Source of the DNA: a virus
Reading direction: 5' to 3' (one strand)
Virus record (IMG/VR): IMGVR_UViG_3300014501_000001
Coordinates: 32,001-96,000 of that record
Length of the DNA stretch: 64,000 nucleotides
Made by a program: the position numbers and the translations under genes. The notes under the pieces were generated by a model. That model did not search any database. It was not told where the DNA came from and worked only from the letters and a program-made list of their open reading frames with translations. Numbering within the stretch: position 1 is the first letter of the stretch; the number at the start of each line of letters is the position of its first letter. Positions 21,709 through 28,676 of the stretch are shown here, piece by piece.

Positions 21709-24399
21709 ATGGCAGCCACACTGACCGCCGGCAACGACCTTGCTTTCGCGAGTTTTCCCATCGAAAAGTGGGAGGACGGCCCGGACGGCTCGGTCTACGT
21801 CTACGGGAAGGCATCGACGCCCGAGATCGACACGGACGATCAGGTGGTCTCGCCCGATTTCTCGGGCCCGGCTCTCAAGCAGTGGATGGAAGCGCCCGCG
21901 CTCCGGGTGAACCATCAGGCCCGCCGCGACCCGGCCGGATCGGGCATTCACGTCGAGATTGACCGGGATGGCGACGGCGCCCACTGGGTGAAGTCGATCG
22001 TGGCCGAGAAGGAAGCGGTCCGGCTGGTCAAGGGCGGCCACCTGCGCGCCTACTCCATCGGCATCGCCCGGCCCGTCATCGAGCGCGACATGACCGGGAA
22101 GGCGCGCGGCGGCATCATCACGGGCGGCGTCATCGCCGAGGTCAGCCTGGTCGATTCGCCCGCGAACAGGTCATGTTTCCTAGAACTGGTCAAAGCGGAC
22201 AAGAACGGCGACGCGCAGTGGTCCGGCAAGGTGTTCGGCGCTGACGACTTCCTCGCCAAGGACGCCGCCCCGGACCTGATCAAGGGCACCGTCTCCTTCT
22301 CCCCTGATGACCTCGCCAAGCTTCTCCAGCACCGCAAGGTCGCCGAGGAGCGCGAAGCGGAAGTCACCAAGGCGGCGGCGGGAGCCGACGAGGCCGGCGG
22401 CGACAACGCTGCGGCTGACCAGGAGGACGAGTCCGGCAACGCCGACATGGAGAACGCCGACGACACGGACGCGCCGAAGGCAGCGGAGCCGGACGCGGCA
22501 GAGGTTGCCGTGGCCGATGCGGTGAAGGCGGTAGAGGTCGCCGTCTACAAGCGGGACGTCTCCGCAGCGGAGCGCAAGGAACTCGCCGGCAAGGGCCACG
22601 CGCTCAAGGACGGTTCCTACCCGATCGCCAACGCCGAGGATCTGGGCAACGCGGCGATCCTGGCCCGCTCCGGTCACGGTGACGTGGCAGCCGCGAAGGC
22701 GCTGATCGCCAAGCGCGCGAGTGAACTGGGCGTGGCCAACCCGCTCGACGACGACGCGGAGAAGGCCGCCACGGCCGATGACGCGCCCGCCGTTCCTGTC
22801 GCTGACAAGGCCGCGAAGCCGAAGATGGCGTGCCCGTCGTGCGGCAAGAAGTCCGGGGCGAAGAACCCGTTCTGCTTCAAGTGCGGCAAGAAGATGACCC
22901 CGGACACCGATGACAAGGCCGACAAGGCCGCATCCCCGACGCCCGCCGATGGCGTGAAGGACGCGCCGCCGGCCGAGCCCGTCACCCCGCACCGGGAGCC
23001 TGACGGGGTGGCGATGGAACAGCTCGAGGACGACGCGCACCTGGAGGGCGGCAACCCGGACGAGGGCGGCGAGCGCGCGGCCGAGGCCGCCGTAGCGCCT
23101 CCCGCAGCCGAGGACGCCCAGGTGGGCAAGACGGCCGGCTCCGAGGCCGCGTCGTGGCGGATCAGGGAGGCCGGCGCCTCGTGGGGCGAGGGGATCCTGC
23201 ATGATTTCCTGTGCCCCGCGTTCTCCCCGGACGCGACCGCGAAGTCCTACCCCGGCCAGACCCTCGCCGCCGTCGCGGACCCGGCGGAATGGCAGTCGAA
23301 GGCACTGTCGGCCGCGATCGACGCCCCGATCCCGGAGGCGGGCAAGGCGCAGCGCCGCTGGCAGGATGCCCTGACCATCGCCGGCACGGACGCCGAGACG
23401 GTCACGGGCCTGCGCTGGGAGGCGCACAAGGCGTTCGCCGACGCGAACCCCGGCCCCTCCGCGTACCCGACTCCGGGCGAGTTGCGCCCGCAGTCGTTCC
23501 GGCGCCCGATCCTCACTGACGGGCAGTCCCCGAGCCCGGCGGCGTCCGGCGCCAGCCCGTCGCACATCACGGCCGATCACATCTCGGCTACGGACTTCAC
23601 CCGCGGCCCGCTCACCGGAGGCCAGGAAGCCTCCAGCGAGCCAGAGGGAGACAACGGCTCCCAGGGCGTCCCGTCAGTGCCGGGGAAGCCGCAGCGGACC
23701 TTCTACCGCAACACGAGCCGCGACGGCGCCAGGGCCGCGATGGCGTCCATGCACGACCACATCGCGGGAACGTTCCCCGACCTGTGCCCCATGCACGGGC
23801 CCGGGATGGGCGGCCAGCCGCCGGCGGGCGCGCGTCCCGTCCCGGTGCCGGGAACCCGGAAGGCAGAGGACGAGCCGGAGGTTGTCAAGGCAGCGGCGCC
23901 GGCAGGCAAGCCGGCCAAGGTGGCGTGCCCGTGCGGCAAGAAGGCCCGTCCCGGCAAGTTCTGCCCCGGCTGCGGCGAGAAGATGCCGATGAAGGGCGGC
24001 ATGGCTGCCAAGGCAGCGGACCCGCTGCCCGCCGTCGCCGCGCTCCCGGTCCCGTCGCTGGACGCCGCGGCGCTCCAGGCAGCCGTCGAGAAGGCCATCG
24101 CCCCTCTCGCCGCCAGGCTTGAGCAGCAGGGCGATCTCATCGACCAGATGGCCTCTGCCCCTGACCCCCGCTATGCCCCGTTCAAGGCCGTGGCTGCCGG
24201 CGGGGTGCTCCCGAAGGCCCTCCAGCCGGCCCCGGCGGTACCTGAGCGGAGCGCCGTGGAGAAGGCAGCCAGCAACGTGCAGGAAACCCTCCTGCGCGAC
24301 CTCCAGTACCAGGCCCGCAACGACCCGGACCCCGGCAGGCGGGAAGTCGCCTGGCAGGAGCTGACCAGGCTGCTGAACGTCGCGGGCGGCACGCGGTAG
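21709..24399 (+). CDS. Prohead protease/scaffold fusion with Zn-ribbon inserts
   Basis: HK97-type protease motifs VYGKAS, AYSIG, EVSLVDSPAN; acidic Ala-rich scaffold; GSYPI small domain. Confidence 0.85.
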   Translation: MAATLTAGNDLAFASFPIEKWEDGPDGSVYVYGKASTPEIDTDDQVVSPDFSGPALKQWMEAPALRVNHQARRDPAGSGIHVEIDRDGDGAHWVKSIVAEKEAVRLVKGGHLRAYSIGIARPVIERDMTGKARGGIITGGVIAEVSLVDSPANRSCFLELVKADKNGDAQWSGKVFGADDFLAKDAAPDLIKGTVSFSPDDLAKLLQHRKVAEEREAEVTKAAAGADEAGGDNAAADQEDESGNADMENADDTDAPKAAEPDAAEVAVADAVKAVEVAVYKRDVSAAERKELAGKGHALKDGSYPIANAEDLGNAAILARSGHGDVAAAKALIAKRASELGVANPLDDDAEKAATADDAPAVPVADKAAKPKMACPSCGKKSGAKNPFCFKCGKKMTPDTDDKADKAASPTPADGVKDAPPAEPVTPHREPDGVAMEQLEDDAHLEGGNPDEGGERAAEAAVAPPAAEDAQVGKTAGSEAASWRIREAGASWGEGILHDFLCPAFSPDATAKSYPGQTLAAVADPAEWQSKALSAAIDAPIPEAGKAQRRWQDALTIAGTDAETVTGLRWEAHKAFADANPGPSAYPTPGELRPQSFRRPILTDGQSPSPAASGASPSHITADHISATDFTRGPLTGGQEASSEPEGDNGSQGVPSVPGKPQRTFYRNTSRDGARAAMASMHDHIAGTFPDLCPMHGPGMGGQPPAGARPVPVPGTRKAEDEPEVVKAAAPAGKPAKVACPCGKKARPGKFCPGCGEKMPMKGGMAAKAADPLPAVAALPVPSLDAAALQAAVEKAIAPLAARLEQQGDLIDQMASAPDPRYAPFKAVAAGGVLPKALQPAPAVPERSAVEKAASNVQETLLRDLQYQARNDPDPGRREVAWQELTRLLNVAGGTR

Positions 24400-24955: not shown

Positions 24956-25073
24956 CCCGCAAACGTCCCTTTCAGCGGTGCTGAGAGGTAACGACTGCCC
25001 GAGCGCGGCGCGCACGGGCCAGACCCCATAGGAGACAACAAGAACGCAACTACCAGCACCCAATAAGGAGTGC

Positions 25074-28000
25074 ATGGCGGACATTCTCGAAGCAACGATC
25101 GCCCCGGCTGACCAGCTCAGCCCCACGGGCGCAGAGGTCGCCGGCAACGTCGCGCAGTTCTCCCGCACGGGGGAAATGCTGAAGGCCCGGCTCCCGAACC
25201 TCGTCAAGGGAGCAGGCTACGCCGGGACCGGCAACGCCCCCCTCACCGACGAGATCCAGATCATGACCAAGGCATCCCAGGCCGCTATCGACCTGCGGCA
25301 GGCAACCTGGGACGGCATCACCGACAAGCCGGCCGTGGTCAAGGGCATGAACCAGGGGTTCCTGAACCAGTTCGGGTACCTGAAGACGGCCCTGACGGCC
25401 CCGTCGCTGATGGACACCCTCGCGGGTGTCTTCGGGCAGATGCCCGGCGGCAGCGAGGCGTTCAAGAATTTCACGGCCGGCAATCTCGGGGTGGGGTCGG
25501 TGTACGGTTTGGTGCCGTTTGACCTCATGCGACCGAGTCGTCTGATCTACCCGGTATATACCGTTTTCCGCAACAAATTCCCACGGCCCCAGGGCCAGGG
25601 CACGAGCGCGCAGGAACGGGTCATCACCGGCATCTCTGGCAGCCAGACCGGCGGCCAGGGTGTCCTCGACGTGTCCATCACCGAGCTGGTTCAGAGCGGC
25701 GGTACGTTCTCGAACTGGCCCCTCAACCTGCCGCCTTCGGGCTCGCAGACTGAGGTCTTCCTCAATGTGCCTTGCATCCTGTAGGGCCGCCGCGCCGCGA
25801 GGCGCACGCGATAACCGCGAGAATTGCTGGAAAGCCCGTACCACATGCACATGCCACAACGTGGGGCGAAAGCCCGAGCGTGATGGCCTGAAAAATGTGC
25901 ATTAGGGGTAATCAGCAGCCGAGCCCGCCTGGACCGCGACACGCGGCACCGACGGGATGGTTCAGAGACTATGCACGCGGGTTCTGGTAATCTTTAACGA
26001 TGGAGATTAATAACGATGACTGGCAGATAATGGCCGGTCAGGAGCGGGAAGAGTTCATTCGGCGCTACGTGGCTGGCGAGGCCCTGACATCCCTCGCCAG
26101 GGAGTATCACCACGGGCCTGCCACGCTGAGGGCAATCCTCGTCAGCGTGGGGGTGCCAGTCCGGACAAGGCCCGGATACGCCAAGGGCAGGAAGTGGTCA
26201 GAAGCGCAGCGTGAAGCTCACAGGCGCACAACTAGCACCCCTGAGCACAGGCAGAAGATGCGCGCGATCATGCTGAAACGCCTCCCGGTCATGCGCGGAG
26301 CGGCGACGAACTCTCCGATCGAGCGCCGGATGCAAGATGCGCTCATGGCGGTCGGCATCGGCTTCACAACGCAGTCTGTCCTGCTGGACCGCTACCTGGT
26401 GGACATCGAGATCCACCAGGCACCCATCGTGATTGAGGCTGACGGCGCGCAGCACACACTGCGCATCCAGAAGGCCAAGGACGCCGAGCGCGACACGGCT
26501 CTCACTGCCGCCGGGTACCGGGTTTTCCGGTTCACGGGCAGCGAGATCAATGCCGACGCCGTGCTGTGTGTCCGGCGTGTTATCGACGCTTGCTTCCTGG
26601 TTCCCGACCAGGAGCCCATCTATGAAATCCGCACGGCTTTCACTGGCGAACTCCACCCGCTCTGGAAGGGCGGCAAGCGGGAGTTCACCTGCGAGATCTG
26701 CGGGGTCGTGTTCATGGCTCAGCCTGCGCACCGCAAGGGGCCGCACATCTACTGCAGCATGCAGTGCAATGGTGCAGCCAAGCGCGGCAAGACGGCGAGT
26801 GCTGAGACCCGTGCCAAGATCAGCGCCGCGAATAGGGGCAAGGAGCGCAAGCCCCCGCCACCGTTCACGGCCGAGCATCGCGCCAAGATCAGCGCAGGGC
26901 TTAAGGGCAGGCCAAAGACTGCGGAGCACGCCGCCAAGGTTGGTGCAGCGCAGGCTGGCAGGCCAAAGTCCGCCGAGACTCGGGCAAAGATCAGCGAAAC
27001 GCTCAAGCGTCGAAACGCAAACCAGAACAAGATAGAGTCCGCTCTGCATGGAGACATGCAGAGGCCGGCAGAAATGACCGGCCCCGCCACCCTGTTCTGA
27101 GGGCGGCGAGTAACAACAGGTACCGTTTCTTCGGCATCAGCGAGCAGCTTTCCTGGCTCGCGCAGTTCGCAGGACAGGGTCAACTTAGAGGCCCCCTCGC
27201 AGGGTGACCTGCGAGTTCACTCGGCACCGTAACGGTGAACCCCGCCAAGCCAAGGGGAATACCGTGGAAACCTCGCACTACAGGGTTCCGTAGAGAGCAA
27301 GCGTGCCGCGCCTGTGTCATGGGACCTGCCCCGAGTGCATCAGGGGCAGCGGACCGCAGGCGAAGTTGTGCTCCGGGCTCGCGCGATGGAAAAGCGCGAG
27401 AGGCGTCCAGAAATGAGGCGCCCGGCCGTCCCCAGTGGCGGCAGGTAACAGTTCGTTCGAGGACATTGCCGGCCTGGCCAACCTGATCATGCTTCAGGAG
27501 GCCATGCTCGGAGAGGAATATCAGTTCATAGCGGGCACTTCCGCTCCGCTGGCCGTTCCCGCAGCACCGACCTGCACTGTCCGCACCGCCGGCTCCAATG
27601 AGACGGCGCTCAACACGAACATCACCGCGGTCAAGGTGGCCGCGACCAACTACTTCGGCTCGACCGCCGTCTCGGCGGCCTCGTCCACGTTCGCCGTGGC
27701 GTCCGGCCAGGTCGTGGATGTCACGATCGCCCCGGTCGCGGGCACGATGACCTACTCGATCTACGCCTTCACGTCCGGTTCCAGCTACTACCTGCTGGCA
27801 TCGGGCGTCGGCGGCCAGAAGTACACCCTGCAGGGCTTCTCGTCCCTGCCGACCGCCGTCGTCCCCCCGGCTGCCGACACCGGCACCGGGAAGAACACCC
27901 GGATGGAAGGCGTCATCCCGACGCTCACCGGGGCGTCGGCCGCTGCGGGGGTCTACCCCAGCGGCTGGCAGGGCGGCTACGTCAACCAGTCCGTGGGAAC

Positions 28001-28511
28001 CCACCTGTCCTACAACGCCATCTACACGGCGCTGGACAGCCTGTGGGAGTCCAACTCCAACTCACCGGGCGCATTCAAGGCGGACCCGCAGGAGATCGTC
28101 GGCGACGGCGGCGACATCATGCGCCTGTCCAACGACGTGATCTCGGCGGGGACGGCGACGAACTACCGCCTGTTCCTGGAGCAGCAGGAAGTCGGGGGAA
28201 TGCGCGTCGGCGGCGCCGTCAGCGAGTTCCAGAACCCGATCACCCGGTCCATCCTCAAGCTGGTCGTCCACCCCTGGTTCACGCAGGGCACGGCGGCCTT
28301 CATGACCTACCAGCCGCCGATGACCTACTCCCAGATCAGCAATGCCTGGGAAGCCCGAATGGTGCAAGATTACGCCAGTATTGCCTGGCCTGTCATAGAT
28401 GCGACCTTTAGGTTCTCAATCTTCTGGTATGGGGCCTTGATCGCGAATGCGCCATTCTTCTCCGGTTTGCTCCAGGGGCTCCAGATTAGTGACGTTACGC
28501 CCTACTCCTGA
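25074..28511 (+). CDS. Major capsid protein, spliced: join(25074..25772, 27121..27180, 27456..28511), 604 aa
   Basis: AAGGAG RBS; follows the protease; removing two group I introns gives one frame ...NVP|YRFFGISEQLSWLAQFAGQG|FEDIAGLANL... Confidence 0.85.
25773..27120 (+). mobile_element. Group I intron 1 with an endonuclease ORF in the P8 loop
   Basis: P AATTGCTGGAAA, Q AATCAGCAGC, R GTTCAGAGACTA, S AAGATAGAGTCC; P1 GCCU/GGGC with U-G; P10 GUA/UAC; P8 GTTCTGGT/ACCAGAAC; terminal G27120. Confidence 0.92.
26000..27100 (+). CDS. Intron-encoded homing endonuclease (DUF559/Vsr-like) with NUMOD3-like repeats
   Basis: YLVDI...IEADGAQH...D..RD..L...GYRVFRF; repeated SAETRAKIS. Confidence 0.8.
   Translation: MEINNDDWQIMAGQEREEFIRRYVAGEALTSLAREYHHGPATLRAILVSVGVPVRTRPGYAKGRKWSEAQREAHRRTTSTPEHRQKMRAIMLKRLPVMRGAATNSPIERRMQDALMAVGIGFTTQSVLLDRYLVDIEIHQAPIVIEADGAQHTLRIQKAKDAERDTALTAAGYRVFRFTGSEINADAVLCVRRVIDACFLVPDQEPIYEIRTAFTGELHPLWKGGKREFTCEICGVVFMAQPAHRKGPHIYCSMQCNGAAKRGKTASAETRAKISAANRGKERKPPPPFTAEHRAKISAGLKGRPKTAEHAAKVGAAQAGRPKSAETRAKISETLKRRNANQNKIESALHGDMQRPAEMTGPATLF
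27181..27455 (+). mobile_element. Group I intron 2 (275 nt, no ORF)
   Basis: P1 GGGU/GCCC; P3 CGGCAC/GTGCCG; P4 ACGGT/ACCGT; R-like CCGTAGAGAGCA and S-like AAGTTGTGCTCC (P7 GAGCA/TGCTC); terminal G27455 restores the frame. Confidence 0.82.
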
Positions 28512-28676
28512 GCATTCATCCTGTTATGTCCGATTAGGACAGGCAGGGTAGCCGGAGTCTCACAGCGGTGCCGGGCCGGGCGCTCAGCAAGGGCGCCCGG
28601 CCCGAGCCCGCTCCCCAACTTCCCGCACTACCCGCAACAGGGCGGCCATGCCGCCAGTCACCACTACAGGAGGCGC

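Follow-up and report, generated by a model that had tools for sequence, protein, structure and literature searches.

We analyzed a viral DNA stretch of 64,000 nucleotides (the window in what follows), which comprises bases 32001-96000 of the 113,096-bp IMG/VR record IMGVR_UViG_3300014501_000001, a genome with direct terminal repeats and 68% G+C. In this window, the major capsid gene is very probably split by two group I introns that flank an internal exon of only 60 nt, such that two splicing events would restore a protein of 604 amino acids (aa). An earlier note on this DNA had proposed the arrangement, and its coordinates, sizes, U and G ends, codon phase and joined protein were all reproduced to the base. 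The evidence comes from exon-intron structure, from homologous genes in which one or both insertions are missing, and from covariation in the ribozyme core of both introns.

Gene layout, homologues and intron-less alleles

The open reading frame (ORF) track presents the locus as three pieces on the same strand, at 25074-25784, 26000-27100 and 27435-28511. The layout that we propose instead is as follows:
25074-25772 (+): exon 1, 233 codons, last base U25772; matches PHROG 13692 profile positions 34-86
25773-27120 (+): insertion 1, putative intron 1 (family 1), 1348 nt
27121-27180 (+): internal micro-exon, 60 nt, 20 codons, aa 234-253, YRFFGISEQLSWLAQFAGQG, last base U27180
27181-27455 (+): insertion 2, putative intron 2 (family 2), 275 nt, without ORF
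27456-28511 (+): exon 3, 351 codons plus stop; matches PHROG 13692 profile positions 196-488

When joined, exon 1, the micro-exon and exon 3 form a 604-aa frame with 0 internal stops. Each insertion is placed between codons, is preceded by an exon U (25772, 27180) and has G as its last base (27120, 27455). The predicted spliced junctions are ...AAUGUGCCU / UACCGUUUC... and ...GACAGGGU / UUCGAGGAC..., which at the protein level read NVP-YRF (exon 1 to micro-exon) and GQG-FED (micro-exon to exon 3), while skipping of the micro-exon would join exon 1 to exon 3 as ...GUGCCU / UUCGAGG.... With this gene structure two splicing events would be required, as the earlier note had held.

To place these exons among known proteins, we searched 1.8 billion representatives with exon 3 (phmmer) and obtained 306 homologues. 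Many of these have a length of 550-635 aa, and exon 3 matches them from residue ~205-280 on. When the joined protein was aligned to 45 full-length homologues with MAFFT, neither junction had a gap, and the micro-exon peptide was conserved, for example as VPYRFFGLTESLSWLAQFEGQGFEDV in P0002 and VPYKFWGLSESLSWLAQFGGQGFEDI in P0001. The earlier note had named homologous capsid proteins lacking this peptide as the outcome that would speak against it; in the alignment, the peptide is present in the uninterrupted homologues. Outside this set, 25000-28600 had no megablast match among 50,697 phage records, tblastn of exon 1 found none, and tblastn of exon 3 found only two Brevundimonas phages, at 25% identity.

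Alleles without the insertions were found at several levels of relatedness. In two IMG/VR loci, L004 and L005 (68.5% identical), the gene is one uninterrupted 604-codon frame, covered by a single high-scoring segment pair, and both introns are absent. In L002/L016, a 115-kb relative with a ~95% identical protein, the micro-exon is contiguous with exon 3, and intron 2 is therefore exactly absent there. In contigs from lake-water DNA runs, 27179 is directly followed by 27456 and 25765 by 27120, with runs X1-X3 lacking one or the other intron and intron 2 being exactly missing from DNA contigs of X1 and X2. The probable source run contains a depth-2 contig without intron 2, beside the window arrangement at a depth of ~27. 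Homologous genes are thus polymorphic for the precise presence or absence of sequence at the insertion sites. We compared window positions 25765-25772 and 27177-27180 with the same positions in L004, L002 and runs X2/X3. Ahead of each site, the synonymous third codon position was U only in intron-bearing alleles (CCT and GGT), empty alleles having CCG at the first site and GGC or GGA at the second. On these sequences, the restriction of U to intron-bearing alleles fits the U·G wobble that is required at a group I 5' splice site.

The exons also evolve as coding sequence. Between the window and L002, the joined ORF has a dN/dS of 0.16, and the 4 changes in the micro-exon are all synonymous, with 0 non-synonymous ones. 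Each of the three exons is thus subject to purifying selection.

Other explanations of the insertions were considered and rejected. Inteins are ruled out by stops in the exon frame of both insertions (TAG 25782-25784). Group II introns are ruled out by the lack of a reverse transcriptase ORF, by lengths that do not suit this class and by the group I core. An assembly artefact is ruled out by a 52-kb contig of the source run, which has 0 differences over the stretch, and by the layout being common to relatives.

It should also be mentioned that many database proteins among the 306 homologues start at exon-3 residue 17, 25 or 150, some of which may be partial gene calls that begin at an intron boundary or an internal start codon. 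A 340-aa ORF of L002 likewise begins at internal Met12 of exon 3. If the fragment explanation is true, the capsid gene is mis-called as pieces in public gene sets.

Structure of the two introns

The elements of intron 1 are listed below. The helices were placed by mapping the family consensus onto the window.
25781-25783 (+): P10 guide, GUA, pairs with the first three bases (UAC) of the next exon
25784-25787 with exon 25769-25772 (+): internal guide sequence and P1, GGGC/GCCU, with U25772·G25784 wobble and GCC/GGC
25792-25805 (+): P2
25815-25819 / 25976-25980 (+): P3
25819-25830 (+): P element, GAGAAUUGCUGG
25825-25830 / 25912-25917 (+): P4
within 25835-25908 (+): P5, P5a and P5b, GAAA loop at 25868-25871
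25910-25918 (+): Q element, AAUCAGCAG
25918-25961 (+): P6
25959-25973 (+): R element, GGUUCAGAGACUAUG
25965-25971 / 27035-27040 (+): P7, G25967-C27039, A25966 bulged
25981-25984 / 27025-27028 (+): P8
27029-27040 (+): S element, AAGAUAGAGUCC
27044-27061, 27063-27083 and 27086-27107 (+): P9, P9.1 and P9.2
27120 (+): terminal G (ωG)

The P, Q, R and S elements, the guide GUA-GGGC and an ORF running from L8 through S and P9, all described in the earlier note, were thus located in the sequence. The comparative evidence for family 1 started from the 24-nt P5b block of intron 1, which occurs in 22 IMG/VR contigs whose surroundings align over the whole core. From 14 ORF-less members (alignment A4), RNAalifold returned a consensus with P2, P3, P4, P5, P5a/b (having a GAAA loop and an A-rich bulge), P6, P8, P9, P9.1 and P9.2. 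When P7 was added as a pseudoknot, 97.4% of the cells of the alignment were paired, compared with 30-43% when the partners were slid by 1-3 columns. With this pseudoknot included, 52 of the 81 pairs show a compensatory change, and none of 500 shuffles reached the observed values. Within P7, the closing pair occurs as G-C, C-G and A-U, and another pair as U-A or C-G. With the interior of L8 removed, the window copy of intron 1 forms every helix of the family, the exceptions being the outer two pairs of P2, the final pair of P6b, one P9.2 pair and a terminal A·G in P7.

Intron 2 is more compact, with the following elements:
27188-27190 (+): P10 guide, GAG, pairs with UUC of exon 3
27191-27194 with exon 27177-27180 (+): internal guide sequence and P1, GCCC/GGGU, with U27180·G27191 wobble and GGG/CCC
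27196-27215 (+): P2, GUGA loop
27222-27227 / 27303-27308 (+): P3
27232-27237 / 27260-27265 (+): P4
27240-27243 / 27254-27257 (+): P5
27266-27289 (+): P6
27293-27299 / 27369-27374 (+): P7, variant GAGCA (27295-27299)/UGCUC (27369-27373), G27295-C27373, A27294 bulged
27309-27316 / 27355-27362 (+): P8
27378-27400, 27402-27422 and 27425-27442 (+): P9, P9.1 and P9.2
27455 (+): terminal G (ωG)

Its closest relatives are L024:7764-8008 (77% over 249 nt) and two copies in L022, with more distant ones in L015, L024 and L006. The alignment of eight family 2 members, including the window copy (A5), has a consensus from P2 to P9.2, and all of these helices form in the window's intron 2. Upon addition of P7, 96.0% of the cells were paired, compared with 36-39% for slid partners, and compensatory changes occur in 43 of the 66 pairs. 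The window copy and the L024 copy at site 161 carry the P7 variant GAGCA/UGCUC, while the other six members have GACUR/YAGUC, two adjacent pairs thus being changed on both sides. The compensated variant P7 to which the earlier note had drawn attention is therefore real, a double compensatory change within the family. Also as described there, intron 2 carries no ORF of its own: no ORF with a Pfam match was found inside it, only the mechanical ORFs of high-GC sequence.

Several hallmarks of group I introns are shared by the two insertions. Both families and both window copies have the P3-P9 core with the P3/P7 pseudoknot and the P4-P6 and P3-P8 domains. Each insertion has an internal guide that pairs as P1 with a U·G wobble at the cleavage site, together with a P10 of 3 bp, and each ends in G (G27120, G27455), as do 9 of 9 mapped relatives. 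The P7 G-C pair next to the bulged base, found in both introns, is invariant in 14 of 14 members of family 1 and 8 of 8 of family 2; by comparison with the Tetrahymena ribozyme, it would be the guanosine-binding site. For nine mapped introns, P1 and P10 together have a mean of 8.3 bp with the cognate exons and of 3.3 bp in non-cognate combinations maximised in the same way. Exon and guide even covary at one insertion site of the capsid family (site 272), where L021 and L026 have CUGGGU with GCCCAG and L024 has CUCGGU with GCCGAG. The families differ in P5, which has an abc-like extension in family 1 and is simple in family 2; P7.1 and P7.2 are absent from both. Family relationships were established by BLAST and structure mapping. 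Comparative evidence therefore supports the assignment of both insertions to group I.

Some observations weigh against the overall reading of the locus and should be considered when referring to it. An Rfam cmscan gave no group I match, either for the whole window at the gathering score or for 25500-27800 and intron 2 alone at E<=10. A search of the whole 113-kb genome with RF00028, whose gathering threshold is 50 bits, gave two candidates only, both partial, on the + strand and inside intron 1:
25821-25974 (+): model positions 56-151, 23.6 bits, E 3.6e-5
26960-27061 (+): 22.9 bits, E 5.7e-5
Both scores fall below the cut-off and intron 2 was unmatched, although this threshold is a property of one model and not of the group I class. 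In addition, P1 has only 4 bp in both introns, the last P7 pair of intron 1 is the A·G mismatch, and the start codon of the endonuclease ORF in intron 1 has no obvious Shine-Dalgarno sequence. Lastly, the sole RNA run found (X20, a peat metatranscriptome, 6% of words) covers 25322-25584 (~92% alike) and 28345-28495, that is, exon interiors and no junction.

The sub-threshold or absent Rfam scores, the short P1, the P7 mismatch and the absence of a junction from run X20 would also be expected if the insertions were decayed or splicing-incompetent relics and the capsid gene here a pseudogene of a defective genome. We consider this highly unlikely, since every core helix is intact in both copies, the exons are stop-free and under purifying selection, and the source run has the same arrangement at a depth of ~27. 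The record is moreover complete, with terminal repeats, and searches that do not depend on splicing found no second capsid copy. Relatives carry the same intron families in the same gene at many sites, which is unlikely if insertion were lethal to the phage.

Capsid identity, predicted splicing and the putative intron 1 endonuclease

The capsid identity of the product could not be read from domain databases. A Pfam scan of the capsid exons gave no family match, a PDB sequence search with the homologue P0001 gave nothing relevant, and PHROG 13692, which matches exons 1 and 3 at consecutive profile positions, is annotated as 'unknown function'. For the structure, we modelled the uninterrupted L004 homologue (68.5% identical) rather than the window's own joined protein. 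The AlphaFold2 model, built with 58 aligned homologues, has a mean pLDDT of 80.7, and Foldseek matched it with a probability of 1.00 to the capsids of Pa223, SPO1, SU10, T5 and HK97 (E 5e-13 to 1e-5), with a TM score (target) of up to 0.69, for HK97. The model contains the E-loop, spine helix, P domain and A domain, and the fold supports the product being an HK97-fold major capsid protein.

Mapped onto this model, site 233 falls between two adjacent strands that we read as the E-loop hairpin, and site 253 just ahead of a long helix that we read as the spine helix. Exon 1 would then hold an N-terminal helical region and the first E-loop strand; the micro-exon, the second E-loop strand and, from the alignment, a conserved SWLAQFAGQG ahead of the spine helix; and exon 3, the spine helix, the remainder of the P-domain and the A-domain. 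The first ~120 residues are helical in the model, and this region of exon 1 may be a delta-like or scaffold-like domain.

This placement bears on the possibility that the exon 1 product, the endonuclease and the exon 3 product are made as separate polypeptides that assemble without RNA splicing, in the manner of genes split by free-standing homing endonucleases. The exon 3 ORF does have an upstream GTG (27435), public gene calls often give fragments, and the homologues starting at exon-3 residues 17 or 25 would suit such a gene. Nonetheless, the protein sequence of the 20-codon exon is perfectly conserved although this exon lacks its own start codon. The breaks would interrupt a single HK97 domain, one within its E-loop hairpin and the other immediately ahead of its spine helix, and covarying ribozyme structure with exon-matched guides would be needless in a plain split gene. 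We therefore find it very hard to credit this possibility and retain the reading of one gene interrupted by two group I introns.

On that reading, a single capsid gene would give a ~3.4-kb precursor transcript with two ribozyme introns. We infer the steps that follow from the standard group I mechanism, and the same holds for catalysis, splicing efficiency and endonuclease activity. Each intron would fold into its P3-P9 core, with the internal guide pairing to the last four exon bases (GCCU/GGGC for intron 1, GGGU/GCCC for intron 2) and leaving a U·G wobble at the cleavage site. Free guanosine, bound at the invariant P7 G-C pair, would cleave after the U, upon which the terminal G would occupy the same pocket, and a short P10 would assist exon ligation (GUA with UAC in intron 1, GAG with UUC in intron 2). 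Capsid mRNA would form only once both introns had reacted.

Within this scheme, one or both introns may need a protein cofactor (a maturase or host factor) or may splice inefficiently or alternatively, in which case splicing could act as a timer or throttle on capsid production and perhaps give some exon-skipped product. We regard this variant as unlikely, while still giving it real weight. The short P1 helices would be in line with it, as would published exon skipping in Twort (cited in PMC6669764) and in the SIOphi terminase, where the skipped form is dominant (PMC11878797). Skipping of the 60-nt exon would also keep the frame, a claim of the earlier note that is arithmetically true. However, the intron 1 guide GUA pairs with only 1 base of the exon 3 start UUC, so that P10 does not favour skipping, and the micro-exon ranks with the best conserved segments of the family, the skipped product thus being probably non-functional.

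Intron 1 also encodes a putative protein in its L8 loop:
26000-27100 (+): putative homing endonuclease, 366 aa
aa 118-188 of this ORF: DUF559 (Vsr-like PD-(D/E)xK) nuclease domain, 53.2 bits (Pfam cut-off 20.6)
~aa 257-344 of this ORF: NUMOD3 DNA-binding repeats, 32.2 bits (Pfam cut-off 20.4)

Nuclease and DNA-binding domains thus both score above curated cut-offs in a peripheral loop, and the ORF matches PHROG 314 and 655, 'homing endonuclease'. It starts in L8 and overlaps P8', P7', P9, P9.1 and part of P9.2, that is, the 3' half of the core. The best PDB match is 3hrl (E 0.012), with no significant match to solved homing endonucleases. Phage homing endonucleases use NUMOD3 repeats as a DNA-binding module, and I-Ssp6803I and I-Bth0305I are PD-(D/E)xK or Vsr-like intron homing endonucleases; like the window ORF, these place a nuclease of the restriction-endonuclease-like superfamily inside a bacterial or phage group I intron. 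Presumably, the intron 1 enzyme would cut intron-less capsid alleles during co-infection, such that the intron is copied in (homing). The L002 intron carries an unrelated HNH ORF (L002:5097-5834) in the same loop, while the L015 sequence leaves the family alignment after the 5' strand of P6 and its insert therefore appears to lie in P6. Such exchange of endonucleases between related introns is a usual feature of mobile introns.

Just upstream of the capsid gene lies an 896-aa ORF (21709-24399, +) with Ala/Pro/Asp-rich stretches and weak zinc-ribbon matches (CPSCGKK...FCFKCGKK and CPCGKK...FCPGCGEK), the N-terminus of which matches only the unannotated PHROG 21715. From its sequence, it may be a candidate protease-scaffold fusion.

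Intron sites across the capsid family and known phage introns

When the joined protein was compared by tblastn with the fetched loci, introns of both families were found at ~10 positions in the capsid family. The positions below are approximate aa; nine boundaries were refined by the U...G rule and the reading frame.
aa 161: L024
aa 230: L002
aa 233: window, L015/L019/L020
aa 253: window only
aa 272: L021/L023/L030, L026, L024, L003
aa 560: L024
aa 562: L015
aa ~573: L018
aa 575: L024, L006
aa 586: L014

The window's own genome contains only the two capsid introns as far as RF00028 and family searches could find. L024 (L024:7200-11100, IMGVR_UViG_3300017970_000036) has four, at ~aa 161, 272, 560 and 575, with a 16-codon micro-exon (~L024:10671-10718) between the last two. 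L002 (L002:4866-5930, IMGVR_UViG_3300037117_000082) has a different family-1 intron 10 nt upstream of the window's site, which follows the second base (CU) of the Leu230 codon and has the guide GGGA for exon UCCU. The core of the window's intron 1 is ~79.5% identical to introns at sites 272 and 573, 68% to the same-site intron of L015 and 70.5% to that of L002; this identity is a crude measure and is affected by the P6 insertion of L015.

The earlier note had also suggested that intron 2 may hitch-hike with intron 1. This found no support: 0 of the fetched relatives carry both, intron 2 is missing from every relative that has an intron at site 233 or beside it (L002, L015/L019/L020), and the nearest relative of intron 2 is at a different site, aa 161 in L024.

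The capsid family could be an arena for group I intron transposition, a tentative suggestion that we would not yet favour. The window and L002 capsid genes are 95% identical, yet at positions 10 nt apart they carry distinct members of the family, whose endonucleases are unrelated (DUF559 versus HNH). Guides appear to be re-matched to each new exon context, with two related intron families in one gene and up to four introns. Intron 1 of the window is also closer to introns at sites 272 and 573 than to the one at its own site in L015. Such a pattern over ~10 sites is what one would predict for introns that reach new sites through reverse splicing, or through mutation of the guide (a requirement of only 4 bp), and not through endonuclease homing alone. 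If true, the long-debated ectopic transposition of group I introns becomes testable in a protein-coding phage gene.

Two further observations concern intron sites. Contig record 9 of run X2 aligns with window 25569-25768 and 27190-27451 and ends before the 3' exon; this lake-water relative appears to carry an intron of the intron-2 type ~8 nt downstream of site 233, after ...TATCGGT, which, if true, adds one more insertion site. In L025 (L025:2777-4576), and also in L011, L013, L022 and L029, another gene (peptide ...KEILFQAMPILRFEQF...) has two or three family-1 or family-2 introns within 1-2 kb.

The statement of the earlier note that phage group I introns are best known in DNA-metabolism, terminase and lysin genes is incomplete, as introns in capsid genes have been published (PMC3706429). 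In the Cluster J mycobacteriophage LittleE, the major capsid gene has an intron, most likely group I, whose splicing was demonstrated by RT-PCR (PMC3706429), and this paper also refers to an intron in the capsid gene of the lactococcal phage Tuc2009. Like the window genome, LittleE is a large (~110 kb) high-GC phage with an exon ending in U, an intron ending in G, an endonuclease gene in the intron and intron-less relatives. In LittleE, however, there is one intron, its LAGLIDADG-like ORF is on the opposite strand and splicing rests on RT-PCR and N-terminal sequencing, whereas the window has two introns 60 nt apart and a same-strand DUF559 plus NUMOD3 ORF, shares no DNA similarity with known phages, and its splicing is predicted.

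Several introns per gene with short exons between them are, in turn, known from Twort, where orf142 has three introns and exon skipping (cited in PMC6669764), and from the Bastillevirinae, with a small exon in rNDPL of phiNIT1 and exon skipping in the SIOphi terminase (PMC11878797). As in the window, RF00028 matches in Bastillevirinae are split by a long endonuclease-bearing loop (PMC11878797). These are, however, low-GC Firmicutes phages with introns mostly in DNA-metabolism or terminase genes, as opposed to a capsid gene at 68% GC, and the window's intron families score below the RF00028 threshold. The Jug jumbo gut phages (360-402 kb) are intron-dense, with ~18 introns over many genes (PMC12880540). 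They share with the window group short group I introns (~200-300 nt), diverse homing endonucleases, essential genes as targets and a content that varies among close relatives, although their introns are spread over many genes rather than being two in one genome and at ~10 sites across relatives of one capsid family.

Introns in capsid genes, phage genes with several introns, short internal exons and exon skipping have thus all been published before, and the picture of what group I introns are is unchanged by the present finding. New are a capsid gene interrupted twice, two intron families below the RF00028 threshold and a capsid family as an intron hot-spot. As RF00028 misses these introns, the capsid genes of such high-GC environmental phages would be systematically mis-annotated. 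A gene that needs two ribozyme reactions, or up to four in relatives, implies either very efficient splicing or a built-in delay. Finally, the many intron-plus and intron-minus alleles, site changes and endonuclease swaps within one gene would make this capsid family a good system for studying the spread of group I introns.

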